DNA of 64,000 bases from Bispira polyomma. Taxonomy: Eukaryota. The DNA lies in contig OZ287752.1 in assembly GCA_965649765.1 (NCBI GenBank), forward strand, positions 55,552,001-55,616,000, given 5' to 3'. Below, piece after piece: positions 3,615 to 47,298 of this stretch. A model generated the notes under the pieces. It was not told the DNA's origin, searched no databases, and saw nothing but the letters and a program-made list of their open reading frames with translations. Positions within the stretch are counted from its first letter, which is position 1. Each line of letters begins with the position of its first letter. The position numbers and the translations under genes were made by a program.

Positions 3615-3794
3615 CTTCACACAGTGGCTCCGTCCCAGACCAGTTACCAGATGCTAAGCATTCCCTTGTATCAGCACCACTGAGGACAAATCCCTCATCA
3701 CACACGTAAGTGGCGTTGGATCCAATTGGGTTGGAAATTGCAACAGAGATATGTCCATTAGCTGGGGGAGGTAAAGGCCCACATCCCAGCATCA
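3615..3794 (-). CDS. Sushi/CCP domain exon, copy 2
   Basis: 180-bp phase 1-1 exon with AG/GT ends. CGPLPPPANG...GSNATYVCDEGFVLSGADTRECLASGNWSGTEPLCE fits the sushi consensus (4 Cys, Trp). Confidence 0.9.
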
Positions 3795-4114
3795 CTAAAT
3801 GTACAAAGATATTACCTATATTACCAATAGGTAAGCCTGTAAATGTCTATAAGTATATATATACATTTATATATATCATAATTTCTACACAGACTGGTGT
3901 TTGCTGAAAGGTATGTAGAATTTGAAATTTTGATTTTTATGATGTCATGGTCTAGCTAGTTTAGATGTTTGTTTACAAAGAGGTAGACATATGACCCGAC
4001 ATCATTAAAGTCAGGCTTACTAGCAGGGTGTTTGAGCTTAATTTGCTATGGATTCATACTAATAGTACAGTATGTGAGGTGCAGTTTGATGGTGCAATTT
4101 GTTTTTGAATGTAC

Positions 4115-4294
4115 CTTCACACAGTGGCTCCATCCCAGACCAGTTACCAGATGCTAAGCATTCCCTTGTATCAGCACCACTGAGGACAAATCCCTCATCA
4201 CACACGTAAGTGGCGTTGGATCCAATTGGGTTGGAAATTGCAACAGAGATATGTCCATTAGCTGGGGGAGGTAAAGGCCCACATCCCAGCATCA
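4115..4294 (-). CDS. Sushi/CCP domain exon, copy 1
   Basis: Identical to 3615-3794 except one base (T->M); same splice sites; offset exactly 500 bp. Confidence 0.9.
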
Positions 4295-5322
4295 CTAAAT
4301 GAACAACAATATTATCTATATTACCAATATGTGAGCCTGTAAACGTCTATCAATAATATCAAAAATTACTATTTTAACATGTTTTTGTTAGAGTAAAAGC
4401 AACTTGCAATCAGGGTCATTATATATTGTGATTGTGTTTTGTGTAAGAATAGGTCAACTGACTATGGATGGATTTTCAATGAAACCAAGCCATTACTATT
4501 AATGTAGTGTTATTAATATTCTGTTATCAACATGTGATTTGTCCTGGGACAACCCATTTGCTAATGGCCTGGTCTCATTTACATATACCCATGTAGTTAT
4601 CAACGCTTGTCTCACCTTCTGACACAAACACGTCATGAAGTCTTCACATACATGGAACGAATGAAGGTTTATTGTCAGCAATTTGTCACTGTCATGACAT
4701 GGAATGAAGATTCACTAATTATCACTTTTACAGACAAATGCCCATAAACATATATCTATATAGACAACGTGTTTATCTATGGTCTCTCACTAATCTTGAT
4801 GTTTCAGACGTATGAAAATGAACACATACCTTCTGACACATACCGCATCATTTTTAAGACAAATTTTCCATTTTAACAAAAATGGGAAACCATCACTCCC
4901 CCTTAAACCTGCCGTGGATAGCAGAGCCATGAGCCAATGCTTTTAACATGTACAACATTTGTCAAAAATCTACAAATTCTCACATACACAGACATTTCTG
5001 AAATATTTAATTGTGACACAATCAGCAGCAATCCATGTAAATGAGACATAGATATAAAATTATTCTCTTTTTTGTCAATTTTTTATTTTATTCACAAACA
5101 TAACCCAATGCAATACTGGATTTCACACATGCATACAAAGTGTTGTAAACGACATTTTTCAATGTAATACACTATATTGTTCTCCTAACAGTGTATAATG
5201 TCATCCGTGTGGTCTTTTCTAAGTATACTGGGAGCATATATGTGCTTTATGGACACAAAATATTCTAAGATATTAGCACAGGACAACGTTAATCACTCTA
5301 ACTTGATTAAAACAATACTAAC

Positions 5323-14269: not shown

Positions 14270-17200
14270 AACATGCATTTAACAGACGCATTTAAGAGAC
14301 GCATTTAACGTTCAATGTGACCACAACAATAAATAATCGTAATGAAGAGTAAAATGCCAAATACTATTGCTGTAATGTCTCCTCTTTAACTTCTTCCAGT
14401 TGGCTGTGGTTTTATATCTGGAAAATGTTGTATTAAACCGAAGGTATTACATATATGTCTGAATGTCACTGCAGCAATTGGCCTAAATATGAACACATCT
14501 TTACATGCAAAAATATTTCTATCATAACTGTTAACTGAAATTTTTTGAACAAATGTTTCTAAGATATAAATTAACACAGACAACCAACCTGTGAATTTTA
14601 ATATTATTTTTGTTAGTTTAATGAAAATACCTAGCACATGATATGATACAAAAATGAAGATTCAGTTTTTCGAACAGATTCCTGTCTGTCCTAAGTTTGC
14701 TAAATGCAAACGCTGTCCTCAAAATGAGTGTGGCAGTATAAGAACAAGTTGTCTCTTGGAATTCAAACTAGTCCGTCCCAGTAAAATATCAACTTTCAAA
14801 TGTTAACTCTTTATAAAACTCAAATTTTTGCATATTGCACAAGGCACAATTTCACTTGCACAAGCAAAATTTACCTTACAAATGATCTTTTAACACCATT
14901 AAAATATTAATATTTTTGCTGTAGCAGTGTTTAAGTGAGACACCGGCTAATGCTGTCTGGTGTACAAACTAAATGTATATAATTGAACTGATTTTACCTT
15001 CTACAGTCAGCCATCCACTGAATGCCTGACCAACTGTGTTACCAGAAAAGGTACATGAAAAGAGACTTGTTTATGAAAGCATCCTGCTGAAGTGAACATG
15101 ATTTGTTATACAATGAGCTGTCACCACGCACATCACCATTGTGACTGTTGTTACATGAATACATGTTCAGAGAATCGTCAACATGAAACTGAAATGTTCC
15201 TTCTTTTGGGGCAAAACATTCAGCTAAACATACAACGTTTCCATCTGATTGTTCTATTTCCAGGTTTTGTAATACTGTAAAATACATATGATTACAAATT
15301 ATTAAACAATCAACTTTGCTGTGCTCTATTAAAATAGTAAAAACACATGTAACAAAGTTTATCAAGTGATATCAACTAGAAAACTGTTCGTTGACAAGGA
15401 ACAATGATGACATATATATGACACATATGTATCAAGTACATTGCTTTGTTGAAAAAGTAAAATAGTAAAACAATGCAACAGAAATATTGTGATACAGAAT
15501 TGTGTTTGTCTTCTATTTTTGTATTTATTTATTTGTGCACATAGATTAATCAAAGATACTTTTGATACTTCTTACCTATGATATTAACACCGTCATAACT
15601 GTGTTAATGGAGAAGAGCTTTTTTTAAACTACCAGTGCCTGATATGTGGCAATAACTGTAGGTCCGACGGACCGAAGCCTTACTGATAAAAGTCCTCCCT
15701 GAGCAAGGCCCCCTCCTCCCTTTATGTTTATTTATAATGTATTGGAAATAATTAAATTTAGGGGAGCGGGGGCTTTTGTCCTATGGTGGGAAGGTCTTTG
15801 ATCAAGAAGAGGAGGGGGGGGGGGGGTCTTTTGTTTTAGAGTAATCTCCAGAGATCACCTTAAGAAGATAAAACATTTCCGTAAAACCTTACCCATGTGA
15901 AAATTATTGTATACATGCAAATAAATTCTGATTGTAACCATTGTTCTCTTGTAAGTACGGACATGAGTGTGTGATTATTTTAAAATTATATTAATGTTAT
16001 AAATTTCCTACACATAACTGTCTAAGTGTCTAAGCTATATCACTTTCTTTTATTACACTAAATAGTAAATATTTAAAATGAGGTAAAAGTGTTAACCTTT
16101 TGTGACAGTAGAAAAAAATATAATAAATATATTTTAGATGTGCAATAAATTTATATAAGATAGCATTAACAATGGGTGCATGCTTGGTTATCATTTAGCC
16201 AATAAGGTTTCTTGGTTATTTCACTTTAAGTTGTGATACCCTACATGGCACATTATTCTCTTCCATCTCTCTATATTTCTGAACACTACAAAACTTATTT
16301 AGGCCTTTGCTTTTTGCAACTATCTTCCATTCCCTTTAGTATTGATGACTCAATAAAATACTTGCAATGTCAAGAGATAGACTCACATATGTCTCCCCAT
16401 TATGTATGCACCTCCAAACACCCTCATCCCTGTCTCTATCAGCATCTGATACAATAACAGTGTAGTTGTCACCAAAGCAGGTGGGTGTCTGTATATATTC
16501 TTCATTTGAAATACAATCTGCTGCTGCTGGTGTATCCTCTCGATTGTACTAAACAGTAAAACCATTCTCGATGGGTCCAGTCCTATTGCAAAGTAACATC
16601 AATGTGACAGAGTGATTTTCATCGACAATTTGTTTATAGTCACTATAGCTCTGTGTCAAACCTAAAATATATTTCATTTATAAAAGTTAACACTGTTTTG
16701 ACATAATAAAATAATATCTACACTCTCAATTGTGTTCAATTTTCTTTGGCCCTAGGCCAATTCTCAACCAAATTTCATGCAAATTGGTTCTGTTAAATTT
16801 GTGTAATCTTGGTGACAAACGATCAAACCAATGGACATGGATGAAAACAAAAACTTCTTGATGAAGAATAATTGACATTTAAAACATATACATGTTTTGT
16901 GAAGTAGAAATAATTCCATTATTGTATTTGTACATAGCTTTTGTAAAAATTCCTATATTAACCTTCTTTAACTTCCTTTAGTCTGTACGAAATTCCAAAC
17001 AAAAATATCCACATATATTCAGTAGATTTTTATCTCTGTACGTGATATACACCTTACATTCAAATTTTTACATATTGGCTTTGAATTTATTATGTGGTAC
17101 AACATAAAATTATAATATTGTCATTATTATAATTATATCAAATATTATGATAAATAATTTACTAGTCACAAAACAACAAATGTTAATGATATCCTTGATA

Positions 17201-18189: not shown

Positions 18190-21100
18190 ATGCTAATAAT
18201 GAAACTTAAAGTAATAGTGCCCCTTTTGATACTGTATACTAAGGGTGCATTTACAGGTTAGTAGGTTTTGTTTATCATGATAGTACATATGAGTGGGAAC
18301 ATTCATGGTGGTTTGTTGTCAAAATGTCTTACACACATTAAAATTATTTAAAAATAAAGCATTGTAACCTGGCATATAGTATTGTTACAACATCCAAATT
18401 AGTACTGTTACATGTAAATTAGTAAACGTTTATCTAATGTAAAATATATAAAATATGTATAAAAAATCTACTTAAACTTAAAACTCACCAGACTTGCGTT
18501 TTCATTGGCGTATGTGTACTTAACTTATGTGTTTGTTAAAAAACTCACTAGATGCGTACATTATGTGATGAAACCATATAAAGAGTCTTATGTTCTATTG
18601 TCACACAATAGAAACATATTGATGTAACTACTGTGTATGATAAAAAAGCTCCCCCTTGCATATACACACACGACTACGCAAATATCGGGTGTTAATTATT
18701 AAAGCGACCAAAGCTGATGAATGTAACACATGTACTTGGTATATACCTAATGTATTAGTTAATTATATTACTCTGTGTCTGCTATATATGTCTGCCAGGT
18801 AATACACAATGTAGACATGGAGAGCTGTTACAGACAATTTGTTTCATTCCAGATAATACTATTACCTTTAGCAATGACTACATTGAGGTTGGTGAAAATT
18901 TTACTGTAACATGTGAAGTTGAATCTATACCTGTATTTACTACAATAAAACGTGCAAATAACATCTGCTATGGTGGATGTGGGGCAATTATAGCTTGTAA
19001 TGATGAAAGAGATGTTTCTGGAGACTGCAGTGGAAGTTCAATATGGGTAACTTTTAGTGCTGCTGTTATTGAAGATTTCACTGAATGGTCCTGTTACGAT
19101 GGAGACGATTTGTTAGTGTCAAAGAATCTAAAGCAGTTTGGTATGTTATATTTTATTGCAGTAATACCTTTGTCAGGTTAATATTATTAAATTGTATTAA
19201 TCCTTGTTTATAAATGAGAACAACATTACCAGGTATTCCTGGTGTAAATATAATTTCTGTTGTTATTGAATGACTTGCTCTCTGAACCATTTATTATTAG
19301 CTATGTTTTAGTATTCAGCAATAAATAGGTTATATAAATATTACAATTGTGACAATTAATTCCATTGTTAACCCTATGCATAAGGTTCCTTGTCAGATCA
19401 AAGTTAAATGGCAATCACCACTGTAATTGTTTGTCAGGTGACATATATCTGAATCTGTTGTGTGATTTTGTTGTATGGGCATTGGGAAAATAAAATGAGA
19501 TATTTGCCATCTAATGAATTAATGTCTAATCTTAGTAGATAATTCGATTTTCACTATAATACATATACAAACAAAGACATAGTAACAAGTAAGTAGTGTA
19601 TAAATTATCTTCGTATAGTAATTTATAGCATAAATACACACATATCCCTTGGTAATACATGAAATGTGTTAGTCTTGGTATATTTTATTCGACAAAGTAT
19701 TGTTTGATTGCACAGACAGCTCAATCTGATAATTACTTCTACATATATGAACCTACATAATAATCAAATTATCTATTTTAGTTGAAACTACATTAGAATA
19801 CCAACAACAACAAGAGGAAATTGTAAAAAATGAAACATATTCTTATGTGTGTAAAGCGGAGAATGGAAAACCTGAGCCTGTAATTAAATGGTATTTGAGT
19901 GGTATTCATCAAACTGACAATGTACTTGACTACAATACAACAGATGGGGAAGAAATAACCCATTTCAGCAATTTTAACTTGACATCACACACTAGCTTAC
20001 AAGGTCAGGTCCTGTACTGTGAGGCTGAACAACTGCCATATAAAGACAAAGTCAAAGCAAGAGAATTGGAACTCAATGTGTTGTGTAAGTATTTATGTTC
20101 TATGCAGGGTTTTTTTTAAAATGTAAAACTATCTGCCTTTATATGTGGTAGTATCTATTGCAAAATTATAGTAAACTGTAAGTGTATAGTGCTTTCTTGG
20201 CTTAGTGATAAACCTGTGCCATATAAATCATTTAGTAGTAGGAGGGATATGTTTTACCCCCGTTTATTTGATTATTTATTGTTTGTTTTTGTGTTGGTAG
20301 GTTACACGATAGGTTACTGAACCAAGTTGACCAAACCAATTTTGACCAAACGTGAGGGGGGGCTAAGGTATAAGTCATGAAATAACCTATTTAAAATTGG
20401 TGGCACACAGACCCCTGCCATGGCAGCACATGGACAAAAAATGAAAAAAAATTGTTGTACACTGTAGCGCCTTATGGATATATATGTACCCTACTAAGTG
20501 GCCTTCCAGTTACTGATCTATTAAGTTCAAGAAAACAATTGAATATAGAATCTTCACATAAATGTTTCTATTTTCAGTCAGTCCCGTAAAGGCAACTGGA
20601 CAACCTATTGCAGCAGGAGTTGTTAATCAGTCTGCAATATTTGAATGTACAGTTGAAGATGAAGACAAAGGAAATCCAGACTTATATAATTTCACGTGGA
20701 CAAGGAAAAATGATGAGACATTCGATAAAACTACCGCAGATGGCCAATTGAATTTCACACCAACATTTGTGAATGATGATGACACTTACTATTGTGAGCC
20801 CAGAAATAAAGTTGGAATTGGTCTGCCGGGAAGCATTACATTTACTGTTAATAGTATGTATAAAAACTTTGATACATATTATATTATATTCCATTATATA
20901 ACACTACAATCTAAAAACATTGTATAGTCAGACATGCAAATTATGTTGCCGGTGAATTAGTAATGAAACAAACAAGTAATATTATAGGTTTCACCTGGCT
21001 CAATATATATATTTACCTTTACAAAATAAAGTTTTGTCAACTGGTTTAACTGTCATCTAGGTCCTCCAATACGACGATCACCTGTCGATGGAAATTATCG

Positions 21101-24100
21101 CATATTTTACACAGATGACCTTGACATCAATTGTACTGTGGAAGGAAGACCAGATTTAAAACATATCCAATGGAACATTACACCGGATGTGGCAAATATT
21201 TTTTTGTCAAAAGAGGGCAACAAATGGTTTGAGGGCAAGCTTTATTTATCTAGTACAATTTTAAACTGGAATCCTGCGGGCCAAGAAAACAGACACCTGG
21301 GAAATGGGAAGGTGGTAATTTGCTATGCAGATAATGAAATTGGCATTCCTGTTAGCCATCCAGTGACAATGAATATTGAATGTAAGTGTTTCTATAGATG
21401 GACCAATTATACATTGTAAAATATTTATTGACAGTTTGTAATATGAATCTAAGCAACTAAGTAACTAATCCAAGCAACAATTTATTCTTCTTGTGTGATA
21501 GTTGAGACAAAAAATAATAATAATTATAGTTTCTTTCATTGTCATAGTGCACAGTCAATAATGTATTTTGAAAAAACTGAGAAAAGTATTTACAAACCAA
21601 ACAGTAAAAATATATAAACATTTATTTATGTATAAATATAGTTAATTTACATATCAATTTGAATTTAATATTCATCTCCACATAGATAAATATAATTACT
21701 ACTGTATATAATATGACATTCATTTCTCCCATCGGTCCCATCAGTACATATCTTAGAAATTTGGTCACTGTTGGTCTCCAAGAGTTTAAATTTACCAATG
21801 TTGTATGTTGTGTGAAAATACATGCATATTTTTGCCAGCAATAGATCTGCTTTACAAATAGGTATTACATAACTTGTACTAGAAATGCAACTACCAAATA
21901 ATTAAAAAATTTCTTATATGAATAAATTAAGGTATATTATGTGTATGTGGGGTAATCTTTGTATTAACCTGGCAGACTTTGTTGTTTAAGTTTTTTTGGA
22001 AAATATTTTAATGTTATTGCAAGTTTTCCAAACTTAATCATGGGTTTTTAGTTGAACCTGGGAAAGCTCAACTTGAACTGAGTATGGACAAAATCAATGT
22101 GGAAAATCAGTTAAATTTGACATGCAACCTTGACAAACCTGGTAACCCAGGTGCCCATGCTTACTATTTTGCCAATGACAAAGACTGGGAGAACAATATT
22201 ACTGCCAATGTAGAAATCATACAGATCACAGATATCAACCAAGAAGGGGTGTACAGATGTGCTGGAATAAATGAGCCATATAATAAAGGTGTCATGTGTG
22301 GGAAAACATCTGATGGACAATTCCTTACTGTTACAGGTATTATTAAAAAAAGTTCCAATTGTATTCTCCATTAAATAACTGCAGCATTCATATCTATTAC
22401 AGTGTCTCACATGTGTTATTTAACCTGGTATTTCAATAATTGACTTGTGGTTAACATATATTAGCATTTTAAATTTATGTTACCAAACAATGATAAATAC
22501 ATATATTTTTGCTGTAAAATATAGTGCCACCCAAAATCTTTGATCCAATGGAAGCCAAACTAGTGAACCCCATATATGGAGAGGATTTTTACTTGGTTTG
22601 TGTAGCTGCGGCAAAACCAAAGGTACAGATCAGTTGGTATAAGGGTGATGCAACTATTTTATCCGATGATGGATACTTTGACAAACCAGTCGAATTCACA
22701 ATAGATATCACAGATTATTTCCATGGTCTTACAGAAGGTAAACAGAGTACTATGATGTGGACTCCACCCAATACGGCTGTAACCTGTGAAAGTGTGACAA
22801 TATACGATGGTGTTTACACCTGCAAAGCTAAAACAGAGGAAGACAGTCATAATACTGTGCAATCAAAGACAATAACCTTACAAACTAGGTGTAAGTACTC
22901 ATGATGTTACATTAAGCTAATTAAGTAAGATAATCATAGATGGTATGTAACATAATGGTATATACATTCAAATACATGTAAAAGAAAAACTCTGACAAAA
23001 TTATATTTTACACAGATCCACCTATTTGGACAGGGAATACCAACTTTGTAGCTGAAATGAATTCATCTTTTACTTTCACATGTTCCATTTGTGCATCACC
23101 ACCTGTCAACAGTTATGTGTGGTACAAGGAAGGGGTTCTTAAAGAAGGGGTACCAATTTGATGAATGTTTTAGTGGCATTCACATATTTTAAAAAGTCAC
23201 AAATGTATTTGACCAATCATTGTGAAATATTAATGAAAATATATAGAGTATTTAGCGAAAGGTATAAAACGAACAAGAATAGCTTTAAAAAAAGTCAGGT
23301 CAAAGGGAGTTCTATTATAGACTAACACTTATGTGGGTATATTCCTGTTCGGAGTCATTCCGGAATTCATTAGAGACCATTTCGCGTAGCAATTTTACCT
23401 ACTTTTTAATTAGGTCAGACTTGAGAATCCCAAAAATAAAAAAGGGTTGTTGGCGTTTTCGAAATTGTATTCCATTATTTCTTTCATATTTAACATTAAC
23501 GGTGATAAAAGAAGATATATGTTGTCATGAATATTATCAATAAATCTACACCCCTAAATGGTTCATCCTAGTTTGCTTGTTAAAAATATATCTTCATACA
23601 GGAAACAGAAAAGGAACTTCATATTCAGATTACAAGCAAGACAGATTTTGGAATGTATGAATGTGAACCTACAAATGCTGTGGACTCTAAAAGATTCCCA
23701 ATCAATCTAACAAGATCAGGTATTTAAACGCCTAAGTCCAAAGTATTCATCATAGTGGCACTCACATAATTATCAGTATTATAACACTATGTTATTAATA
23801 TATGACGCTTTAATGGTGTAGCAGATACTTACTACCTCTTCACCTCTGTAGATAATGTTGCCAAGGTTGTTCTACAAAATACAAATGTCAAAGCATCTGA
23901 CACGAACACTTACAATATCCCCAATAGTGTAGTGTTAAATATATTTCTCATACGTGAATAGTTGCCATAGATGATATTTTATGTTTGTAAATAATTGTTC
24001 AAACTCAGTGCTACAGTTTATCTGATATAAGAGTTATGCACATCTGTGAAATTACACTGAAACAAGCCATATGATTGTTTGACACTACATAGTTAAGAAT

Positions 24101-26745
24101 GCTCTTTTGTAAACCATTAAGCTCTACATTTATGTACAATCATTTTAGTTTTTTTTTTGCTTGTCTCAGGTCCTCCAGTCATCAAAAAGTTAAAGATTAA
24201 TTTGAACATCACTTCCACAGCAATACCTATTTCATGGGTCATAGAAACCTTTGGGGACTCTCCATCACTAACTTTTACCATTTGGACCAAGCACATCTCT
24301 TCTAGCAGTTATGAAATATGGAAAGATGATATTTGCATGAATGTTAAAGAGGGTGACTTGGTACAAATTAATGTAGATGGCTTAGCACCAGACAGACAAT
24401 ATGACATCAAAATTGCAGCAAAAAGTGTTGAACCAAGTGGTGATGTCATGAGTCAGCCTTTGTACACTACTGGAGAAACAAGAGGTTGCTTATACTTTAA
24501 TAAAATATGTACCCATAGAAACAATCATGTAATCATCATTCATTTGCCACCAGTTTTTCTAATAGTTTATGAAGTGCTACATTGTTGCAATTTACAATGT
24601 TTATCACCAAATGGGATTGTGATATATTATCTGGTTAATCATTTGTCATGCTGTTTCCAGATGAAAATATGTAATATGTTGTACCATGGATAATAGAAGC
24701 CCAATCAATCTAGTTTTTCCCTGTCACTTTTTTGTTCTGTTTTTATTAGAATCACCAGTTATTGACATAGATACAGTTCTTGTTTCCACATATGACCTGA
24801 TAGTGACCTGGACATTTCTACAGAAAGTACATAATAACCAGGTTAGTTAATTATTTGGCAAAATCGAACATGCATGTAGAGTTATTAAAGCAAATTTTAC
24901 ATGAACAGTTTTATATTGGTTATATTTAAGTTGTGTGTGTATTTGGTTGCCATGTCAAAAGAATAACATAAAAACACTTAACACAGTTTGAGCCCTTTAT
25001 GACATTATGCATCAAGTACTGGGCGAGAGATAATGGGGAACAAAGCTCTATCATCTACCCCAGCATTGAAGCCTGTGTGATAGAAGTGTTTATAGGAACA
25101 GAGGTGATCCACGGCATATTTGACCCTACATCGACTTACTATATTGAATTAATGGTGTATGAAAATGGACTCCCAGGATCTAACTCTGGGAACAATTTTG
25201 AAGCTTCTAATGCAGAGGATGCTGATGACACTAGTTAGTGCATTTTTTATATTTCTGTGAGAGAGATAAAGTCATATAGATATGAAATGGGAATGTAATT
25301 TGATTTTACCTTCCTTGATGCTGCTTAATTTGACTAAATAAGGAAATATGGTTATGCGATGTAATTTTGTTGAGTTTTATATGAATGGTTAATTCATAAC
25401 TTTATGTTTTGTTGTAGTATCACCTGGTGGAATAGCAGCTATTGCTGTATCAATAGTTTTGGTTTTATTTATTGCACTGGAGTCTTTGATGCTAGTTTCC
25501 GGAATGCTTAATATCAACAGAAACTTTTGGAATCGTAAGAAAAATGTGTTTTTTTTTATCTTATCTAATATCGGATTTCTTCTTTAGTTCAAAGGAATAA
25601 TAACAGACAAGTAATTGAAAATTACACAAACATCTCCAACTAAATTAGGATATATTTTAGACATGATTAAAATTCTTAGGCCATATTTAAAAATACGTCT
25701 CAGTCTGAAGCTAGTCTTCAGCTTAAGATTTGTTTCTTTGATTTGGGCCTTTGAAAATGGCCTCTGGATTAATTGACTTAGCCACAAGCCTTTATATTGT
25801 ATACAACTAAAGAAAACTTTTACATTTTGCCTAGACATTACTAAACATTATTTTAAACATCTTAACACCAACAAGTGTACACATATCAAATTTAGTACAT
25901 TTCTTCATTGGCTAGTAAGCAATCATGTATCTATACAATTAAATTGTATTCTACAGGAAAGAGCCAGAATGCACCAACAGATAAAAGGTGAGAATATTTT
26001 TTATGCCGAAATTCAGTTTTCTAGTTTCTTAATATAATCCCAAATAACTGTTGTACTACATTTGTATTGTAGGGAGGATGAAACAATCTCTTGGGATAAA
26101 GGTAAATATTTGTGTTGATACAGAAACAGTAAAATGAGTTTACATTGTTGTTTGGCCTCGGTGAAATGTATTTAACATCATAACTTAAAGCTGAGGTAAA
26201 TATAAAAATCTTTAGAAACAAGAACAATATAAACTCCATGATCTTGTTAGGAGTAATCTATTTTTACTAAATACTTTTAGGCTATGAGTTGTGTCATTGG
26301 TATACTGTTCTCAAATGAAGGCCATTCCCAGCATATAATGTATATAATCATGACAGTGTGGTTTAAATCATCGTCTTCACCAAATCTACTGCTAATGTTC
26401 CCACATACATGTCAGAGCCGTGATTCGAAACCCATCACTACAGAGGTAGGAGGTATGAGTGTTATGGAGGTACCATATCCCCAGTGTTAGGCGAAATAAA
26501 TTTCATCTTATTTTCAGTTTTGTGTATTTTAATCAGTCTTAAAAGACAAAATAAAATAAATGAGTTGTTATTTCTGTGACTGTAATTAGTTTTGTTGATC
26601 AGGTTACAGTGAAATCCAAATGGCACAGAGTCAGAGTGAAGACCAGACATATGAAAAGCTCCGCCAGCAACACTATGAGAATACAGGATTTGAACAGTAT
26701 GAATCACTGGATAAGTTGGCTGGTGACTCAACAGACAAAGTGTGA
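18190..26745 (+). CDS. Type I membrane receptor: signal peptide + 7 Ig + 2 FN3 + TM + tyrosine-motif (ITAM-like) tail, ~1043 aa
   Basis: Manually spliced GT-AG exons in compatible phases with no stops: 18190-18256, 18853-19140, 19782-20084, 20578-20853, 21061-21381, 22052-22336, 22525-22890, 23016-23149, 23602-23719, 24170-24484, 24750-24841, 24987-25233, 25418-25534, 25957-25987, 26073-26101, 26603-26745 (3132 nt). Ig motifs include CKAENGKPEPVIKW, DDDTYYCEPRNKVG, EGVYRC, DGVYTC and DFGMYECEPTNAV. FN3: ITSTAIPISW...GLAPDRQYDIKIAA. TM: GGIAAIAVSIVLVLFIALESLMLV. Confidence 0.85.
20235..20512 (+). mobile_element. HINE/Helentron-like non-autonomous repeat in an intron
   Basis: GGAGGGATATGTTTTACCCCCGTTT, then a (TTTG/TTTA)n tract, and a 3' end ...CTACTAAGTGGCCTTCCAGTT, the typical HINE layout. 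Confidence 0.5.
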
Positions 26746-27999
26746 ACTCATTATACAGACTAACAATATTCACCTCAAAGGACTTAAGTGACACTTTTGA
26801 AATAATAATATCGAATTCCTAGGCCATGACCTACGTCTGATTTAGCTATGATACACTTCAAATATGATACAAACCCAATTATGTACATTAAACTTAATAT
26901 ATATAATGGAGAGGAATTATATTCAAGTACACAGAGGACACATACATGTCCAGTGCATATATATATTAGCTATTACATAATATATCAAACAATAGGAAAA
27001 CATATGAAACAGCATATATTTATGAAATAGTGTCCACCAAAGCTTTGTATAAACATTGTTTTTTTACAATCATGCTGTCGCCATGGCCTTGTAGCGGCTC
27101 TAAAAATTACAATTTTATTGGCCGTCTGATACAGAGCTAAAGGTGAACATCCTTGCAAACACATGATGTTGATCTGAAAGTGTAATGTTTGGTTGGGTTT
27201 TTACCTGAATTTTGCCCCAATTATAATTGTGCACAAATCTTATAAAAATACACAGCCCATTTTTCTAAAATTGCAGGACCTTGTAGTACATACAACAATT
27301 TTACCAAGGGATGAATTGGCTATATTTTAACGTAAATTGATTGATCATTGCACTTGTTTTGTCAAGATGTACTTCACTTAAGTATATGTTGCTTATGTTA
27401 TGACACTACACACCAGGAAATAAATATATCTTATTAACTACTCCACTCTACAGTTATCAGCTTTACAGGTCAAATTCCAGGCTGATTTAATTTATAAAAA
27501 GAATACATGTACTTTATTTAATTTTAAGAAAAAGGCTTAATTTAAAATTAGGTTTTGTCCTTTGTCATAATAACAGAGAAAATGTTAGTCTTATGGCAGA
27601 TATAATACAACGTTTCTCTCAAAGCTTACTATATTACATGATTGCATTATTATATACAAATATATTGTATTTTTTTTTATTTGTTTTTCTTTTGAAACCA
27701 CACATCAAGCAGAAATTTATTGAGCATGTTAAATGAAGACAGTAAAACCTCTGATTATGGTGAAGTATGTTAACTGATCACATCAGGTTGCAAAATTTGG
27801 AATAGACATAAAAAGCATGTATTTGGGCCGAGCGTCTAGATTTGTCTAGATGAAAATCAGCATGAACATATCAATTTGATAACATAATAATATTTGCAAA
27901 TTAGTTTAAACATGGAAAAAACAAGAAGTAAAATATTATTCTCTTAAATTTTCAGCCATTGATATACATCATCTGATCAACAAAGAAATGAAAGTCATG

Positions 28000-30339: not shown

Positions 30340-33300
30340 ATTTTGGAATAGAATTTTGAGAATGCCTGATGACGGGTTTAATACAAAAATATTTTGCCGG
30401 GTAGAGCGGGTCACCGCACCAGCTAGTTCAGTGCTTTCTAGTACTTTTGCCAACTAAACTGCATCTATTTTAATTGGCCAACATGTGGGAGTACTAATTA
30501 ATTGTGGCCCAATTACCCCTTTACCTTCAGTTTTGAAAGTCAAACCAAGGAGGCAGGACACTGTTTTATAAATAACATAAAATATTTAAAAAATTTATTT
30601 TAATTTTTCCTTATTTACAACTTTTATATCTGACAATTGTATTGAATATAGAACAGTATCACTCTATGTACTTGGAACCATACTACTAGTATAACTAGAG
30701 ATAAAAGGAATAATTACACTAGTGCCATTTACAACATTCTATGTATGTGAAGCCGCACTACTTGTGTGAGGACGAACTGCTGTGTTATATATATATATAT
30801 AAAAGGATCAATAATAGTGTAGTGCCATATATGACCTTCTATGTAGGTGGAATAAGAATAAAAACTGGCTACGATTGTGTTTTATATACAAAAAGGAGCA
30901 TTTGTTTACGTGGAGATATAATACAAAAAAAAAAACTATCTCCGTGTTATGGAAACCCATTAAAAATGTTGTAAATTTAATGGACCTGTGAACTGAAGTA
31001 TTCCAAAGCTCCTCTGGATGTGTTCCTGGATGTTATATTTAACTCAAAACCTTTGAGTCATGCGAATATAGCTCATTGAGCATTATTTACAGGGCCGTAT
31101 TTTACTACCTATTGATATTTTAATTGTTTTTAACTCAACTATATATTCAAATCATTCCAAAACGCTCAACTTATATACGCATGTATCAAAGCACAGGATC
31201 TTCTTTTATTTTATTCTAGATTGACTGAAAATTATAAAACTGTAAAAATGCCAAAGGTAAGAACATATAACTGCAAATCATGTGGAGGTAATCACCAACG
31301 GCCGGTTGGTAATAGATGTCAAATGTTACAAGATGATGAACAATCAGGACTAAATGTACACTCACCGTCTATTAGTGGGAGTACTATGTCAGCCTCCGAG
31401 GTGAATCTACTGATTCTAGAAGAACTTAGGAGGTTGTATGACCACCATTGAACAACAAGCTATTAATGAGGTGCCCGATGTCACAACCCCTCGACGACCC
31501 GCCCAGGACAAACCTTGGACAGAGGACCGAGTATCTGATGCAATCTTGCCATCCCTACAATCTCTGCGGGCCTCACATTCAATCCAAGGGGAAGTCAACA
31601 ATCGTCTGAGGGAGCTTCAAGAACTGAACGAATCTGGTAGGTTCAAATCTCAACGGGGGGCTCAGACACCATATGGGTAAAGAAAGAAGTGGCCTGGCCA
31701 CATAATTATGTTTTGGGGTGCAGTGCTAAAGCTCGTGTTTCATATGACAATCTATCCATGTGTCAGTGGGTGTCTGGCTTTAGTGCTATTATTAAAGAGG
31801 AGTCAAACATTGAGACAGAAAACTGCCATGTTAGAATATATGTCAGATAACATGGATGATAGCCATGATTTTTCGTAGGCAGCAGGCATACTGTACTTCT
31901 GTGCAGGATGGAAGAGAACAAAATTGATTGGAAAAACACAGCCAAAATTGATAGGTTAAGAAGAGTAAATGCTCAAAAAACGTATACAAATGTAGACAGT
32001 AAGAGTAGTAATAGTTTTACTGCCTCCAAGAAAAGCCGGAAGGAAGGGGGCAATCCTTGCCTTTTGTATCAAAAAGGTACTTGCACACACAAAGGCGACC
32101 ATGAGTCGGGGGGCCAGATGTATCTTCACATCTGTGCTACTTGCTCTGCCTCTGCAAAGAGTTGTACTCGTCCATCCAAGAACTGTCGCAAAAATGCTGC
32201 AAAGAACTAGTAGGGCACTGCCAAAAGGCAGTGCAAAGTTCAGTAAATTATAAAAATAAACTGTTCAGAGATGTTGTTTGTAGAGAATATAAAAGTGTAA
32301 ATAACAATATTAAATGTCATAGTGAAAGTGCTAATTGGAGAGCTGACTTGGCCAAATTTCAAAATAAATCTTATGCAGACGTGGTCAAATCTGTAAGACA
32401 AACAAAGAAACAGCCCCAGGGATGGGATAATAAACACAACAGCTCCAACCAGCGCTCTCACAATAAAAGTAAAAAGAAATAATGCGTATCAGTCTAATGT
32501 GAACAAAACTGCTGTAAAATTGTCATCTGTCAAACATAAACAATTGTTTTCAGCAGAAAAAGAACAGCAATCAGCTGTCTTAGGTGAAGGTCACAGACCG
32601 TGAAATTATTGTCAGCTGGATGAAAATAAAACTTCTGTATATGTGTCATCTGTCAAACATAAATATTTGTTTTCAGCAGAAAAGGGACAGCAATCAGCTG
32701 TTTCAGGTGAAGGGGGTAAACCTTGGTATGATTGCAAGAGACAGACTCCCCCCATTCACAAAAACAGAAAAACCACAGTTTGTCACTCCTCCTCCAAACT
32801 AACAAAGAACCCTATTAAGAAAACAAAGGGGAATGGGATGTATCCAGTTAGTTTAGAAACAATAGACAAGAATGTTCACAAACCCCATATATTCCCTACA
32901 ACTAACAATAGGTTCAGTGTGTTAACCCCATCAGAGTGTCAAGATATCCCAGATGACATTAACAACGTGGTGGGGGGTAAGGGTATCAGTGTTGAAAAAA
33001 ATTACACTTCAGAAAAAGCCTCACAGCAACTACGAAAACCCTTTAGGGGTCACCGGGTAGTAAAAAACTTAGGCTATATTGATAGGTGTATTGTACCACT
33101 AACAAGAAAGTGAATAAACAGAATTTACTATCTGGGGGTACTAGAAACAGGGTAATCAGAAACCCCTCAGAGCAGGAAAACTCGGATATTAGCAACAAAG
33201 CTGCAGTTACAAATGCATCGGATGATAAGTATAACTTACAATTACAAGTCAAGCCCCGTACACAAGAAATACTGCAAGCAGCCGTCAGAAACCACACATT

Positions 33301-36300
33301 CAACAAGTGGTCTGCACAAGTGAGTGATAAATTCGGGTTTATTCCAATAGGGGACTTACAATTACCCTATAGTGATAAAAGAAATAAAACTGACAAATCT
33401 TTAATCGAATTGAATAAAATTATACGTGAATCAGCTTCCCTCAATTTCATGGGGAGGCAGTTGGAAATCACTTCTCAATTAAACTCAGATAAATGGGATG
33501 AATATTTAAAGGACTATTGGGACGTTCAATCCCACTTCTTATTAGATATGGATTTCCGTTTCAGATTTTTACAGAGATGCTACATTGTCTTATGTGCAAA
33601 AGAATCATAACTCGGCGTCGGCTTACTCGCGTGAGATTGAGGCATATTTAGAGGTAGAACAAGGTTAAGGGGAGATATTAGGTCCTTTCAGTACACCACC
33701 ATTTCGTGATACACACATATCACCCTTCATGAGTAGAGAAAAGCCTGGGGCCCCTCATAGGCGGGTCATCATAGATCTCAGCTTCTCCCCCGGGCAGTCA
33801 GTAAACTCAGCTCTAAAAAAAGACAAATACCTAGACACCCCTTTTATTTTGACACTACTGACAGTAGATAACATTACTGAAAAAGTTAAGCAATTAGGAA
33901 AAGTTTCAATGCTCTATAAAATTGATTTAAGCAGGGCATTTAGGCACGTGAAGCTTGACCCTTCCGACTATGACTTACTGGGCTTAAAAATTGACCAGTA
34001 CTACATAGACACTTGCCTTCCATTTGGTTTTAGGCACGGAAGGGCCATATTTCAACGCCTGAGCGACGCAGTCAGATTTGTCATGAATAACAAGCAATAT
34101 GATGTCATAAACTACATTGATGACATCATAGGTTTTGGCCTTCCTAGCAAAATTCAGGACTCTTTTAAAACACAACATGACCTCCTCCTGGAACTAGGTT
34201 TCAAAATTAGTAGACATAAACTAGTGGCACCAGCCACTAAGGTTACATGTTTAGGGGTTATAATTGACGCTGAGAAGTTTACAATGTCAATACCAGAAGA
34301 GAAATTAAATTCAATACGTAAAACATGTGGTAATTGGCTAGGGAAAAAATCATGTAAGAAAAGAGACCTACAATCCCTCCTAGGTAGTCTACTGTATATA
34401 TCCAAGTGTGTTAGAGTGGCCAGGGCATTTCTCAACAGAATGCTAGATACATTAAGATTATGCCATGACAAAAATAACATCACATTAAGCTCTTCTTTTA
34501 AATAAGACCTATCATGGTTCATAAAATTCCTACCTCATTTTAATGGTACCACATTCTTCGATCATAGACCCCCATCAGCTAAAATAGGACTTGATGCATG
34601 TCTCCAGGGTATAGGAGGAGCCTGGGGCTCCCAGGTCTATAAATTAGAAATACCACTCGGCTTTGAAGAGTCTGGAAGCACCAGTGGCAAGGCCAAAAAA
34701 TTATCATATATTGCGACAACCAGGCGGTAGTGTCCATCCTTGCTGCAGGTAAAACAAAAGATTTAACACTAGCAGCCATTGCTCGAAATATTTTTATGGA
34801 GGTTGCACTTGCAGGTATCAACCCTAGAACCATACATATTTTTGGAAAAAACAATGAAGTGGCAGATTTATTGTCGAGGTGGCACTGAACACCCCATAAT
34901 ACCGAAAAACTACTAACACACATTAAACACGCCCAGTGGGTAATCCCACCCAGTTTTTGTAATGTTGATTGGTCTATGTAATTCTCAGGCTCCAACCCAT
35001 GGGTAAGGGAGGTAGCAGGTAGAGCTGCAAGGAGAGCACAACAAGCCTTCAGATCATCTATCCAGAAGGCTTATCAATTCATGTTTAAAAACTTCCTCTC
35101 ATATGGTGTATTCATATCTGTATCAACCAGCAACATTTCACCACTGGTCCTCTTAGCATTTCTAGAGGTGCTAATCTTTAATAAGGTCTCCACATCATCA
35201 ATAGCAAATTATCTAGCTGCTATTAAAGCCAAAATGTCACTCTACGGCTTAGACATCTCAAGCTTTTCTGATCCCAGAACTAAGTACTATCAAAAAGCAA
35301 TGCTATTACAGAAACCCTTTAGAGCCACAATAAAAACTATTATAGATATCCCAACATTGCGAGCCATTGGCTCACAATGTGACAAAATGTACATGGGACA
35401 GGTTTTCAAAGCCCTATACCCAGTGGCCTATTTTTCATTTCTGAGAATTTCGAACTTTGTCCCACATTTCATAAAACAATATTCTCCAATACAACACCTG
35501 TCTAGGGGAGACATCTTGTTTGCCCCCCCTGGCATTCACGTAATCATAAAATGGTCAAAAACCATGCAGACCAGAGATACCTGTAAGGTTATTAAACTTC
35601 TTTCCTTAGGTTCCTCCCCCTTATGCCCATATAGGGCCCTCAAGAATCTGCTTGCAATAACTACTGGTTCCAAAAATAAACCCCTATTTTAATTTAAAAA
35701 CTTTCAGCAATGGAACCCTCTCACGGATTCAAAAGTCAGAAGAAATTTGTCACATTCAACCAAAATGTGTCAATCCAAAACATACAAAGTCGTGGCACAT
35801 GGTCCTCCGACTGTGTATGGAAATATATAATACAAGATCACAATGCTTCGGACCAAGTAGCATTGGCCTTCAGATCCTTACTACATCATTAACACTACTA
35901 CTAGCTGGGCTTTGGTGCTTTTTCTTGCTATATTCATATAACTTTTACATGCTTACCATATTGCGTGAACTTAATGTCACATATATACCAAATTTAATTC
36001 AAAAATCTTAAGGTCACCTTTAATTTATACATACGTAAACTTGTTAATGTCTCTTTTATTACAGTAACTTAAACTCATATTCCAAACTCACAGTTAAGGT
36101 TACCTTAAAGTTTAACCTTAACTTTAGGTTAAGGCAATCTTAAACTCATGCCTCAACTTAAGGTGACCTTAAATATTTTAATTCTAGTAATGTAAATAGT
36201 AGATCTAACCCTTAGAAAGTATTAAAATTAATATTCCCAAATGAATGTGTTTTTACTAACTTCATACACATGTCACTATCAGAGGCACTGATGTACGGTT

Positions 36301-41738: not shown

Positions 41739-44700
41739 AATGGTGGTTCCACTATGCCGATTTGGTCCCCGGCCTTCCCGATTTTCAGGTTCAGGGCGTG
41801 TCCGTATAGGTCCAAGGGTGAAAACTCGGCAAACATGGTAGTCGCGAAGATTATTAAAAATGTTCAATATTTTAAAAAAGTCCCCCATCTCTAAAAATAG
41901 GAAGGTCGGTATCGCCAAATAAGTTCGATCAGGTTGTCATTACGTTCTGTTTGATAGCTCTTATCTCACTCCAGGCCTGTTCTAACAGTGGCTTGTTCAA
42001 ACGTATAGGTCGGGGGCCGAAAACGGGGTGAACGGGTGGTATGAGGAGGCTGAGGCAGTTTTAGTACAGACTTCAAGGCCTAATCTAATCTAATCATACT
42101 TTTATAGCACTTAACCTTAACTTAACCAACAAATTTGAAGCTGCAGCTAAGCTAAGCATTAATCAAAAAAAAAATCAGAAATGGGGGATGGATGGTGGTC
42201 ATAACCAGAAAGACTACCGGGATGGTTGTGATGGCTAGGCCTGTTCGAAAAGGTAGGCTTTCAGCCTATTCCTAAAAGAGAAGAACGTTTGAGCCAAGCG
42301 AACATGATCAGGCAGGCTGTTCCTTATGAACGGGCCATCATGAGCAAGGCAATGATTAAAATGTACTTTGGATTTGTGGATGCGAGCGTCGAAAGTGAGA
42401 ATATTTAGATACAATTTATCAGAGTTACTGCACCTAGTCCTGACTGAGCATGTATATTTGGATAGATGGGGGCTGAAATAGATGGGGGATCCAGAATTTA
42501 GAAATTTGTATATAATTGTTGCAGTTTTGAAAGCAACACAATTTTTTATTGGGAGCCAGTGGAATGACTTGAGTACAGGAGTAATATGAGAAAATTTAGA
42601 AGTTTTTGCCACAATGCAAGCCAAAGAGTGTTGAACGTTCTAAAGGCGTTTGAGGTCACTACAACATAGCGATGGAAGAGAGAGTTGCAGTAATCAAGCC
42701 TACTGCTGACCAAGGCATTGGCAATAGTGATTGCATGTGGATTTGGTTAGATAATGTTGAATTCGCCTGAAATCACGGAGGCCAACAAAACATGATCCGC
42801 GCATGGATGCAACATAGTTGGAGAAGGAGAATCCGAGTCGAACAACACGCCAAGGTTGCGTACTTTGTCAGCTAGGAAAAGCCTGCTGTCAAGAATACTA
42901 ACTGGGAAACAGCTGGACAGTTTTTCCCGTTGCGACTTTGAGCCAAACAAAATAATCTCAGTCTTATCAGGGTTCAGCTTGAGTTTATTTGCTGCCATCC
43001 AGTGTTGTACATCGACAAGGCAGTTCTATAAGGAGGTGAAAGCTGCCTGGGCAGAATCGGGTGTGAGGTGGATGTACAATTGGATATCATCCGCATTGAA
43101 GTGAAAGTTTATATTTTTGTATGCAGCCATGAACTGGCTGCGTGGAGTGGTGTACATTGAGAACAAAATAGGACCCAGGACTGAACCCTAGGAAACTTTT
43201 TAACCATGTAGGGTCGGACGAGATGTTGCCAATTTTGACCGATTGAAATTTCTCAGACAAATATGCCGTGAAACATTTAAGTGCAGTACCGCTGATACCA
43301 AACCAAGATGATAGGCACTAAAGAAGAACTTTGTGATCAATAGTATCAAATGCCGCCGACAGATCCAGCAGTACTAAGGCAGTAGGCATACCTTTGGATA
43401 AAGATATATGAACGTCATTTTTGATGCAGAGTAGTGCAGTCTCTGTAGAATGACCCCTTCTGTACGTTGACTTATACTTATTGTAAAGATTACTAACATC
43501 GAGATGTTGTTTGATCTGTAAGACGACCGCACGTTCAACCAACTTAGAGATATAGCAAAGGCCTGAGACAGGATGATAGTTTTTCGAATCAGCCTTTGGA
43601 AGAGAAGATTTTTTTATTAAAAGAGTGACAATGGTTTTTTAAAAATCATTTTGAAAGACGCCATTGACCAATGAGAGGTTAACAAGTTTGGTGATTGAGG
43701 GCAATAAAATGTCAATACATTCCTTAACAAGGAATGTAGGCCACGGATCTAACAAGCTAGATGTTACGGGTGCTGTAAGTATAATCTTTCTGACCTCATC
43801 AACAGATATTGTGAAGAAATAGTTGAAGATGGTTGGTGGAGCTGATGGTAAAGGAGCATTTGGGCAGATAATATAAATCTATCACGGATCCTAGTAATTT
43901 TATCAGTAAAAAATGTTTGCCAGTGATTTACTATTGCTGTTTTCGTGTAGTATAGTCTGTTTTTTTCTGGTGTAGGGTGCTGTTTAATTTCTCCCAGAGT
44001 TTCTTGGAGTCGCCCTCACTTACTGTGATCAGTTGGTGTAGTATACACGTTTGGCATCATTGATAGTGTTATTGCACCTGGTGATGCATTTGTGTAGTCG
44101 TGATCTGTTTATGGTAGTATTGTTTCGGCGCCATGTCAGTTCAGCTTGTCTACGCAGCATCTTCAACTCCCGGTACATACCAGTGATCAACTAAAGTGCA
44201 GGCTTCTTCAATGTCTTGGACTTACATGGAGCATGGCATTCTAAGAGAGATTGTAGATCAGCACAGTACTGCGTGTATAGATCCATTGCATTATCAGCAG
44301 GAGACTTGACGAAGGCCATATCAGCCAAGTTTCGTCTAAGGTATGACATATTGATTTTATGAAATTGACGAAAGTGATTTGTGTGACAGCAAAAGATTGC
44401 GGGTAGGGAGCATCAAGTTCGCAGGATATTGAGAAATGATCGCTGATGTGATCAATGTTTTTTTATATTTCTGATACCATTGAAATCAGTAGGAGTAAGC
44501 AGGCAGTCTAGTGTATGCCCATGAATATGGGTAGGGAAGTTTATGTGTTGGATAAGGTTGCAAGATTCCAGAACAGTAGAGAAGCGATTACTATTACTAG
44601 ATGCAGTGTCTATGTGGATATTAAAATCACCACAGAATATAGTATGAGAGGGTAACGAGCAAGTGAACCAGAAAAAAGGTCGATCATGGTCGGTGTTCCG

Positions 44701-44855: not shown

Positions 44856-45339
44856 TTAAAGACAATAATTATTTTGGTTTTCATAATGTATTATTAAATT
44901 TTGTTTATGACTAAAAATTCATATTTGTGTTTTAGATTCCTGATGTGACCATGCTCAATTTAACCTTGCAGTATCTGTCATTAGCAAATAACCATTTAAC
45001 ACATGTTAACTTGAATTACTTCACTAATTTTCCACAACTAAGTATGCTGAATTTCAACTATAGTAATATTGTTAATGTAACACTCTCTCAACCAATAGCA
45101 GTGTCTGAATTACAGTTCACAATCAATAAACTGACCGAGAAAGATATGAATTTACTTCCTCAGATATGATTAAATTGGATTTGAGTTCAAATCCACTGAT
45201 CAATGTTATTGCTGCAAATACAGCAATCACTGTACAGGCTCTGTACATAAATGACATACAGTCACATGTCACATCAGACATAACAATCAATATCACCCAT
45301 TTAGAAATGTATAGCTCATCTGCAAGTGATTTTACTTCA

Positions 45340-47298
45340 CCCGGTGCAACAACACTATAAATGACTCAAAACGTGCCTACTATGCCAACATGATATCACA
45401 AAGCGAGGGTGACCGGAAGAAACTTTGGCAAAAACTAAATAGCACCCTCCACCGTAAAAAACAGACTATACTACCCGAAAATTCCAATAGCAAATCACTG
45501 GCAAACATTTTTAGTACTTTTTTCACTGATAAAATTATCAGAATCCGTGACGGTTTTACATTAGCTGCTCCAAATGCCCCTTTACCAACAGCTCCACCAA
45601 CCGTCTTTAACTGTTTCTCCACAGTAACTGTTGATGAAGTCAGGAAAATTATACTGGCATCACCCGTAATATCTTGCTTGCTAGATCCGTGGCCCACATT
45701 CCTTGTCAAAGAATGTATTGACAATTTATTGCCCTCAATCACAAAACTTATCAACCTCTCGTTGATAAATGCCGTCTTTCCAGATGATTTTAAAAAGGCT
45801 ATTGTCACTCCTTTAATAAAAAAACCTTCTCTTTCAAAGGCTGACTTGACCTGTCTCAGGCATTTGCTATATCTCTAAGTTGGTAGAACGCGCGGTTGCC
45901 TTACAGATCAAACAACATGTTGACGTCAGCAATCTGTCCAAGTATCAGTCAGCGTACAAAAGTGGTCATTCTACTTAGACTGCACTTCTCTGCATCAAAT
46001 ATGATGTTCATACATCTTTATCCAAAGGTATGCCTACTGCCTTAGTACTGCTGGATCTGTCAGCAGCCTTTGATACTATTGATCACAAAGTTCTTCTTGA
46101 GTGCCTATCGTCTTGGTTCGGTATCAGCGGTATGGCGCTTAAGTGGTTCACGGCATATTTGTCTGATAGATTCCAATCAGTCAAAATTGGCAATATCTTA
46201 TCCGACCCAACATGGTTAAAATTTGGTGTTCCCCAAGGTTCCGTCTTGGGTCCCATTTTGTTTTCCATGTACACCACTCCACTCATACAAAAACATAAAC
46301 TTTCACTTCTATGCTGATGATACCCAACTGTACATCTACCTTACACCTGACTCTGCCCAGGCAGCTTTCACTTCTTTACAAAACTGCTTTGTCGATGTAC
46401 AACACTGGATGGCAGCAAATAAACTGAAGCTGAACCCTGAGAAGACTGAGTTTATTTTGTTTGGCTCCAAGTTGCAACGGGAAAATTTGTCCAGCTGTTT
46501 TCCACTTTACATTCTTGGCAGCAGGTTTTTTCCAGCTGACAAAGTACGAAACCTGGGTGTGGTGTTCGACTCGTAGATCATGTTTTGTTGGCCTCCGTGA
46601 TTTCAGGCGGATTCGACGCTATCTTTCCAAATCCACTGCAATCACTGTTGCCAATGCTTTGGTCAGCAGCAGGCTTGATTACTGCAACTCTCTGTTCCGT
46701 TCCTTATCTCATAGTGATCTCAGACGCCTTCAGAATATCCAACACTCATTGGCACGTATTGTGACCAAAACTTCTAAATTTTCCCACATTACTCCTGTAC
46801 TCAAGTCACTGCACTGGCTCCCAATAAAATATCGTGTTGCTTTCAAAACAGCAACAATAATATATAAATTTCTAAATTCTGGATTACCCACTTATTTTAG
46901 CCCCCATCTATCCAAATATACATGCTCAGTCAGGACAAGGCGCAGTAACCCTGATAAATTATACCTTAACATTTCCACTTTCGACCCTCGCATCCACAAA
47001 TCCAAAGTTCAGTTCAATCACTGCCTAGCTCATGATGGCCCCCTCATTTGGAACAGCCTACCTGATCATGTTCGTCTGGCTCAAACTTTCTCCTCTTTCA
47101 GGAGTAAGCTGAAGGCCTATCTTTTTGAACAGGCATTTTCACCTTAGCCGTCGCAACCCTTTACGGTAGTCTCCCTGGTTATGACTTTCATCCGCCCACT
47201 ATTTTTGATTTTCGATTAACGTTTTGAGTTTGTTGCGCCTTAGAATTTGTTGTACAAAGATTAAGCGCTATAAAAGTACGATTAGATTAGATTAGATT
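45340..47298 (+). mobile_element. 5'-truncated L2 LINE of the same family, inserted in an LRR exon
   Basis: ORFs 45390-47147 (LDLSAAFDTIDH, GVPQGSVLGP, YADD, SRLDYCNSL, HWLP) and an (ATTAG)n tail at 47281-47298. Removing it rejoins the LRR frame as SDFTS|FEMRNF. Confidence 0.92.

Follow-up and report, generated by a model that had tools for sequence, protein, structure and literature searches.

The window analysed here, C5:55552001-55616000, is a 64,000-nucleotide stretch of the Bispira polyomma genome, and relatives of its genes were sought across 1.04 Gb in 75 contigs. On its forward strand lies gene A, an unbroken gene for a single-pass Ig/FN3 receptor, and the exon at 26603-26745 is the end of its cytoplasmic tail. 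Gene A comprises 16 exons that encode a signal peptide, seven Ig domains, two FN3 domains, a transmembrane segment and a 67-residue tail (Table 1). Without the signal exon it runs through 15 exons and 14 introns with 1039 open codons, AG/GT at every junction and zero defects. A Pfam scan of the second exon of the second FN3-like domain returned no match.

Table 1. Features of gene A, of its window and of related genes. Positions without a contig name are those of the window.
Feature	Position	Strand	Basis or remark
Sushi/CCP-like exon	3363-4359	-	two tandem copies, 93% identical
Divergent gene with V-like exon	15042-16660	-	head to head with gene A
Gene A, probable first coding exon	18190-18256	+	signal-peptide-like, phase-1 donor; assigned by eye
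Gene A, N-terminal Cys-rich Ig-like exon V0	18799-19140	+	by eye; Pfam Ig_3 at E 0.16
Gene A, six further Ig domains in seven exons	19782-23719 (19782-20084, 20578-20853, 21061-21381, 22052-22336, 22525-22890, 23016-23149 + 23602-23719)	+	open frame, AG/GT; Pfam Ig E 6e-8 to 0.1
Gene A, FN3 domain 1	24170-24484	+	Pfam fn3 E 6e-6; begins block 73-75% identical in copies B, D and F
Gene A, second FN3-like domain, two exons	24750-24841, 24987-25233	+	open frame; fold inferred by eye
Gene A, transmembrane exon	25418-25534	+	splice chain and tail alignment
Gene A, cytoplasmic exon C1, 31 nt	25957-25987	+	equal size in B, F and G
Gene A, cytoplasmic exon C2, 29 nt	26073-26101	+	equal size in B and G; in F 17 nt, frame kept
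Gene A, terminal exon C3 with stop	26603-26745	+	YSEI 26605-26616, YEKL 26650-26661, YENT 26674-26685, YESL 26698-26709
Conserved core, acidic-YEKL then YxN	26650-26685	+	Tyr in 9/9 tails (inflated by selection of the distant tails), YxN in 7/9
Retrotransposon-like element	31134-35689	+	tyrosine-recombinase type
LINE-like fragments	42080-44084, 45337-47295		inverted pair, 82% identical
Copy C	52021-53458	-	broken FN3-transmembrane fragment of the gene A block
Copy D, 3' part	60080-63042	-	paralogue, broken, oriented towards gene A; its tail exon (60080-60184) is decayed
Gene J	C5:55779638-55784320		ITIM-bearing
Gene K	C5:55925152-55933664		ITIM-bearing
V-like exons upstream of short gene N	C5:55947467-55966243		four in succession, two with stops
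EMI-like/EGF/FN3 receptor kinase cluster	C5:52644000-53157000
Gene G	C5:53224600-53241805		chimera: ectodomain of probable receptor-pseudokinase type, transmembrane-tail cassette
Syk gene	C3:71526422-71559780		two SH2 and kinase; no ankyrin motif seen
Shark-like gene	C10:34437128-34477226		SH2, ankyrin, SH2, kinase, by motif

The V-like exon of the divergent gene carries a stop and is 43% like an exon at C5:55675490-55675830. The retrotransposon-like element downstream of gene A has gag-like, RT, RNase H-like and YR frames, and others of its kind lie in the cluster.

Genome-wide, five close copies of the terminal exon were found, namely those of A, B, D and F in one cluster and that of G, 2.3 Mb away. 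Further members (J, K, M, N, O and P) came from a genome search with the Ig5 domain and from the DNA flanking its matches; the search gives a lower bound, and the intactness of these six members rests on single exons. M, N, O and P, read by eye, each have a related transmembrane exon and end in an exon whose acceptor is phase 1, and their tails (21-29% identity) were aligned with the five close ones to give a set of nine. Within the transmembrane segment there is a Glu in A as against a Val in B, F and G; in N, O and P an acidic residue stands at its start.

The sequence-only reading had described the terminal exon as carrying four phosphotyrosine motifs in ITAM-like spacing. Its peptide and limits are confirmed: the exon follows a TCAG acceptor, is read in phase 1 and ends in DKV before a TGA. 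Phase 1 is supplied by the upstream AG/GT chain of the transmembrane, 31-nt and 29-nt exons, with the two small exons either both in or both out. A second frame (26604-26788, + strand), tyrosine-free and basic, has no stop within the terminal exon, and splicing that skipped C1 alone would lead into it. The spacings YSEI-x11-YEKL and YEKL-x12-YESL are also as described, as is the acidic context, the 67-residue tail having 4 Tyr and 15 acidic residues, with one acidic residue at -3 of both YSEI and YEKL. In 200,000 composition-preserving shuffles of the tail, tails with at least three Yxx[LI] motifs arose at a frequency of 7.3e-4 and tails with two pairs spaced by 6-12 residues at 6.5e-5; the patterns were picked post hoc, and the result says that the arrangement is unlikely from composition, nothing more. 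Of 863 overlapping ectodomain stretches of 67 residues, none has three such motifs.

As to class, the canonical ITAM (YxxL/I-x6-8(9)-YxxL/I) is not present, the spacers being 11 and 12 instead, and a 6-8 pair is absent from A, B, F and G. The extended pattern of the Draper and FcgammaRIIA type (YxxL/I-x6-12-YxxL/I, acidic upstream) is matched by two pairs in A. The hemITAM consensus [ED][ED][ED]xYxxL is matched at two of its three acidic positions by E-D-Q-T-YEKL, which is hemITAM-like only, and YENT is a motif match to the Grb2-type YxN core. The absence of an ITIM that had been noted for A extends to B, F and G, in none of which [SIVL]xYxx[IVL] occurs. The suggestion that DKV is a PDZ ligand fares less well. 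A terminal Val stands in three of five close copies (DKV in A, DNV in B, ASV in F) and an Asp at -2 in two of five, while this end is lost from G, D and the four distant tails; a PDZ-ligand role is at best weakly suggested.

The frame that had been read is the only one that shows purifying selection. In it, pN/pS for A against B, F and G is 0.28, 0.32 and 0.25 (Fisher p 0.022, 0.022 and 0.0003), three comparisons that are non-independent because B, F and G are mutually related, as against at least 0.86 in either other frame; D, whose 3' end is replaced, was omitted. Third codon positions are the most variable, with 6, 8 and 18 variable columns, of 42, at positions 1, 2 and 3. Two other frames of the exon were rejected, phase 0 (about 60 open codons, no Tyr) at a pN/pS of at least 1.25 and phase 2 for its 8-10 stops. 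The terminal exon is 76-86% identical, whereas the intron and UTR on either side are at about 40%; exon-limited gene conversion could be another contributor to the identity of the exon. For the tail of G, the comparison with A points to past purifying selection.

Among the close copies found, gene A alone is unbroken; the other four tail copies all lie in broken genes. In B, three Ig exons are frameshifted and an FN3 exon is cut; F carries two stops and one frameshift, D several stops, and G, in its EMI-like exon, a TGA at a codon that is Cys in its relatives. For copy C no terminal exon was found. Such a record, together with the transmembrane Glu that sets A apart from B, F and G, would suit a gene A that is itself silent or newly dying, its motifs a relic, an explanation that we regard as very unlikely given that A is intact over 1039 codons and 14 introns.

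Only one tyrosine persists throughout. The YEKL tyrosine is invariant across the nine tails, a figure inflated by the choice of the distant tails with a tyrosine-motif filter, so that they align mainly on the motif, and no other tyrosine is invariant. Its Leu+3 is kept in seven of nine, with Pro in two broken genes, and a YxN follows 6-8 residues past YEKL, likewise in seven of nine. YSEI occurs in three of nine (A, D and F; three of five close copies and 0/4 distant), and B and G share a change of its tyrosine to Phe with a 2-residue deletion; since A, D and F have it, YSEI is probably ancestral to the close group. The 12-spaced YxxL is found in four of nine tails (4/5 close, 0/4 distant). 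With both missing from the distant tails, the two long ITAMs do not appear to be the conserved unit. The proposed check on tyrosine conservation thus upholds YEKL and YxN and confines YSEI and the 12-spaced YxxL to the close group. The natural Tyr-to-Phe and Leu-to-Pro variants form a mutant series bearing on the site needs of invertebrate Syk, Shark and Grb2.

These patterns bear directly on a strict two-tyrosine ITAM, in which YSEI-x11-YEKL or YEKL-x12-YESL would bind tandem SH2 domains in cis. Its spacers have precedents in the x11 of Draper and the 12 or 11 of FcgammaRIIA (PMC13148388, PMC6563257), and the acidic -3 residues at YSEI and YEKL and the probable ancestry of YSEI in the close group agree with it. 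The loss of YSEI in B and G and the absence of either pair from the four distant tails count against it, and we consider it unlikely.

Two relatives in the same cluster carry tails of the opposite type. The ectodomain exons of K are open, and its transmembrane segment and tail differ from those of gene A: the tail has VIYADL and LVYADL, and next comes an exon for a cytoplasmic I-set domain (E 6e-7). J likewise has SYYADL and then a cytoplasmic I-set (E 5e-13), and both genes end in an acidic DDD..F-E-[VI]-[YF]-G. ITIM receptors with a cytoplasmic Ig domain have been described in invertebrates and no novelty is claimed for them, although none was found in our literature search. Further broken copies of this type of cytoplasmic Ig exon lie at C5:55863800-55867200.

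The ectodomains of the family are mosaic. F resembles K at 75-89% in all seven Ig exons tested and at 31-36% in the FN3 exons; against A, its Ig exons reach 32-47%, its FN3 exons 75-77% and its tail 78%. B resembles K (70-93%) in Ig5-Ig6 only. These figures place the swap point between Ig6 and FN1, and the FN3-transmembrane-tail block, or the transmembrane-tail part alone, appears to be a cassette that has come to lie behind different ectodomains through recombination. F and K thus combine similar ectodomains with opposite tails in one cluster, as paired receptors do, F being a broken gene. For gene A no close inhibitory twin was found, its Ig exons reaching at most 53% to the nine other genes compared in a search that gives a lower bound. 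The family looks like one of predicted paired activating and inhibitory receptors. Among the V-like exons upstream of N, one is 74% like the V exon of F, which possibly reflects V-exon turnover.

Seven Ig and two FN3 domains in a row are a layout typical of adhesion molecules, and YxxL/I is also the AP-2 sorting signal. Gene A could accordingly be a nephrin- or IgCAM-like adhesion receptor whose tyrosines serve endocytic sorting and developmental adaptor binding, not immune activation, and the terminal Val in three of five close copies would suit it. Immune receptor families are a better fit to the quick gain and loss of genes, the mosaic ectodomains and the ITIM siblings. Such an adhesion receptor also finds no support in the Ig5 profile search, which gave 823 matches at E 0.001: among the best 150 no long orthologue stood out, nine were short, single-domain, family-like fragments without a tail, and none of the ten long matches in which a hydrophobic stretch lies close to the end showed a 6-12 pair. 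FN1, a G ectodomain exon and the tail alignment were also used as queries in word-based searches for homologues, which are weak searches, and returned nothing (43, 46 and 148 candidates). We hold an adhesion receptor to be quite improbable.

Gene G carries the cassette outside the Ig family. Its transmembrane, C1, C2 and C3 exons follow an EMI-like/EGF/FN3 ectodomain in compatible splice phases, and that ectodomain is 89% identical in DNA to genes H and I over 8.8 kb. In each of the five relatives of G, out of six, whose downstream DNA was examined, a tyrosine-kinase domain lies 3' of the ectodomain, while the 120 kb surrounding G hold no kinase exon. The catalytic loop reads HRRLG or HKRLG in the four relatives in which the exon was seen; this loop lacks the usual catalytic Asp, so the relatives are probably pseudokinases. 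At the junction, G has 2.5 copies of a 323-base tandem unit in which the end of an Ig-family FN2 exon is joined to the end of a native FN3 exon, and this composition argues that the cassette moved from the Ig family into G. In three runs, short contigs agree with separate stretches of the junction without differences, but the 323-base repeats are spanned by none of them and one or two bins lack coverage, so that the junction is not proven to be free of assembly error. For the stop in G an assembly error was rejected: in all three runs it lies within a 709-base contig that is identical to the assembly (two samples of one study, which may be the source samples). In the receptor kinase cluster, HRRLG/HKRLG and GFG stand where the usual catalytic motifs would be; H and I form an inverted pair, 98-99% identical, and the 5' part of G is 98% identical to them while its FN3 is at about 80%, which suggests recent conversion. 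No report of an invertebrate tail grafted onto a receptor kinase surfaced in literature searches that were not aimed squarely at this point.

The genome encodes candidate partners for such a tail. Of 71 candidates in an SH2 search, 38 matched, a lower bound, and 35 of these were examined. The first SH2 of the Syk gene has SYK as its best PDB match (E 3e-16), and the Shark-like gene was assigned by the order of its motifs, its PDB match alone being ambiguous. Other SH2 exons are presumably Src-, Csk-, SHIP- and SHP2-like, and one gene with two adjacent SH2 exons we take to be SHP2-like. Grb2 was not recognised among the 35 of 38 matches, the search being a lower bound. The presence of the two adjacent SHP2-like exons, and a TxYxxL that G has gained nine residues past YETL through a one-base shift, would allow an inhibitory or switch tail, its tandem YxxL bound by both SHP2 SH2 domains. 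We rate this as highly improbable, since A, B, F and G are without an ITIM, whereas the true ITIMs belong to two other genes, K and J, whose tail is unrelated.

Together, these observations lead us to favor, at a probability of roughly 0.55, a tail that acts as an activating phosphotyrosine docking site anchored on YEKL, in a predicted paired activating and inhibitory family. From the motifs and known pathways we infer that ligand-driven clustering would lead to phosphorylation of the tail by a Src-family kinase and that the acidic YEKL would anchor Syk or Shark. The partner of YEKL could be YSEI (11 spacer) or YESL (12 spacer) in cis, or a second chain in a hemITAM-like arrangement. YENT may recruit a Grb2-type adaptor and lead to ERK, YxN being known to bind Grb2 (PMC4263166), and the ITIM-bearing K and J would counteract through SHP2 or SHIP. 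The activating Src-Syk/Shark receptor proposed at the outset thus finds backing in the selected frame, the Syk and Shark-like genes, the nearby ITIM relatives and a motif like that of oyster CgIgR, and appears to lose its two long ITAMs as the conserved unit.

We further put forward, as a tentative idea that may well prove wrong, that a portable multi-exon activation cassette (transmembrane segment and acidic-YxxL/YxN tail, with FN3 domains optional) has repeatedly been grafted behind ectodomains of the family's own ITIM/cytoplasmic-Ig inhibitory receptors and even of an unrelated receptor pseudokinase. Short-lived activating counter-receptors would result, and A would be the current live one. 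Both informative chimeras, F and G, are broken genes.

Receptors of comparable design have been described elsewhere. The oyster receptor CgIgR, whose tail carries YTEL-x8-YEKL and co-precipitates with Syk, is like A an invertebrate single-pass multi-Ig protein with a motif near YSEI-x11-YEKL and with Syk in the genome (PMC6994640). Compared by tail motif and layout, it differs in having five Ig domains, no FN3 reported and a shorter spacer, and A adds YxN and YESL; motif mutants of CgIgR were not found in the passages searched (PMC6994640). Hydractinia Alr genes resemble the A family in their clustered Ig and FN3-like domains, ITAM and ITIM members, exon shuffling, and Syk and Shark (10.1101/2022.03.04.482883). 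As described there, however, Alr ITAMs are defined with 6-9 spacers, as against 11 and 12 in A, and Alr tails diverge more than ectodomains, whereas in A, B, D and F conservation is highest in the tail block. The tail of gene A appears to be of the same kind as those of CgIgR and Alr, likely activating and not a canonical ITAM.

Botryllus FcoR also has IgSF members with ITIM and hemITAM, the latter defined as [ED][ED][ED]xYxxL, and swapped motifs; there the swap is between alleles or by splicing inside one gene, whereas the A family would recombine multi-exon blocks between genes (PMC12582321). Draper shares the YxxI-x11-YxxL spacing, its ITAM being YXXI-X11-YXXL, and is non-homologous, with an EGF-type ectodomain and an NPxY motif (PMC13148388, 10.1101/198986). 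Since ITAM-like Ig receptors are known from oyster, Hydractinia and Botryllus, the motif alone is ordinary and tail swapping is the new part. The locus adds evolutionary mechanics: activating-type and ITIM-type members, a clean Ig6/FN3 swap point, frequent death of activating copies and a tail replacing a kinase domain.

A parallel is found in vertebrate paired receptors. FCGR2A/2B/2C and CD300A/C show common ectodomains with opposite tails, chimeras and activating members that are often pseudogenised (PMC6563257, PMC12447643). FcgammaRIIA has 12 or 11 residues between its boxes and FCGR2C is a chimera (PMC6563257), while CD300C is often pseudogenised and CD300A persists (PMC12447643). The vertebrate swaps are intra-family and the receptors share no homology with gene A, whereas here the cassette seems also to have reached an unrelated receptor-kinase gene. 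If confirmed, paired-receptor turnover of the vertebrate style runs in Bispira polyomma too.
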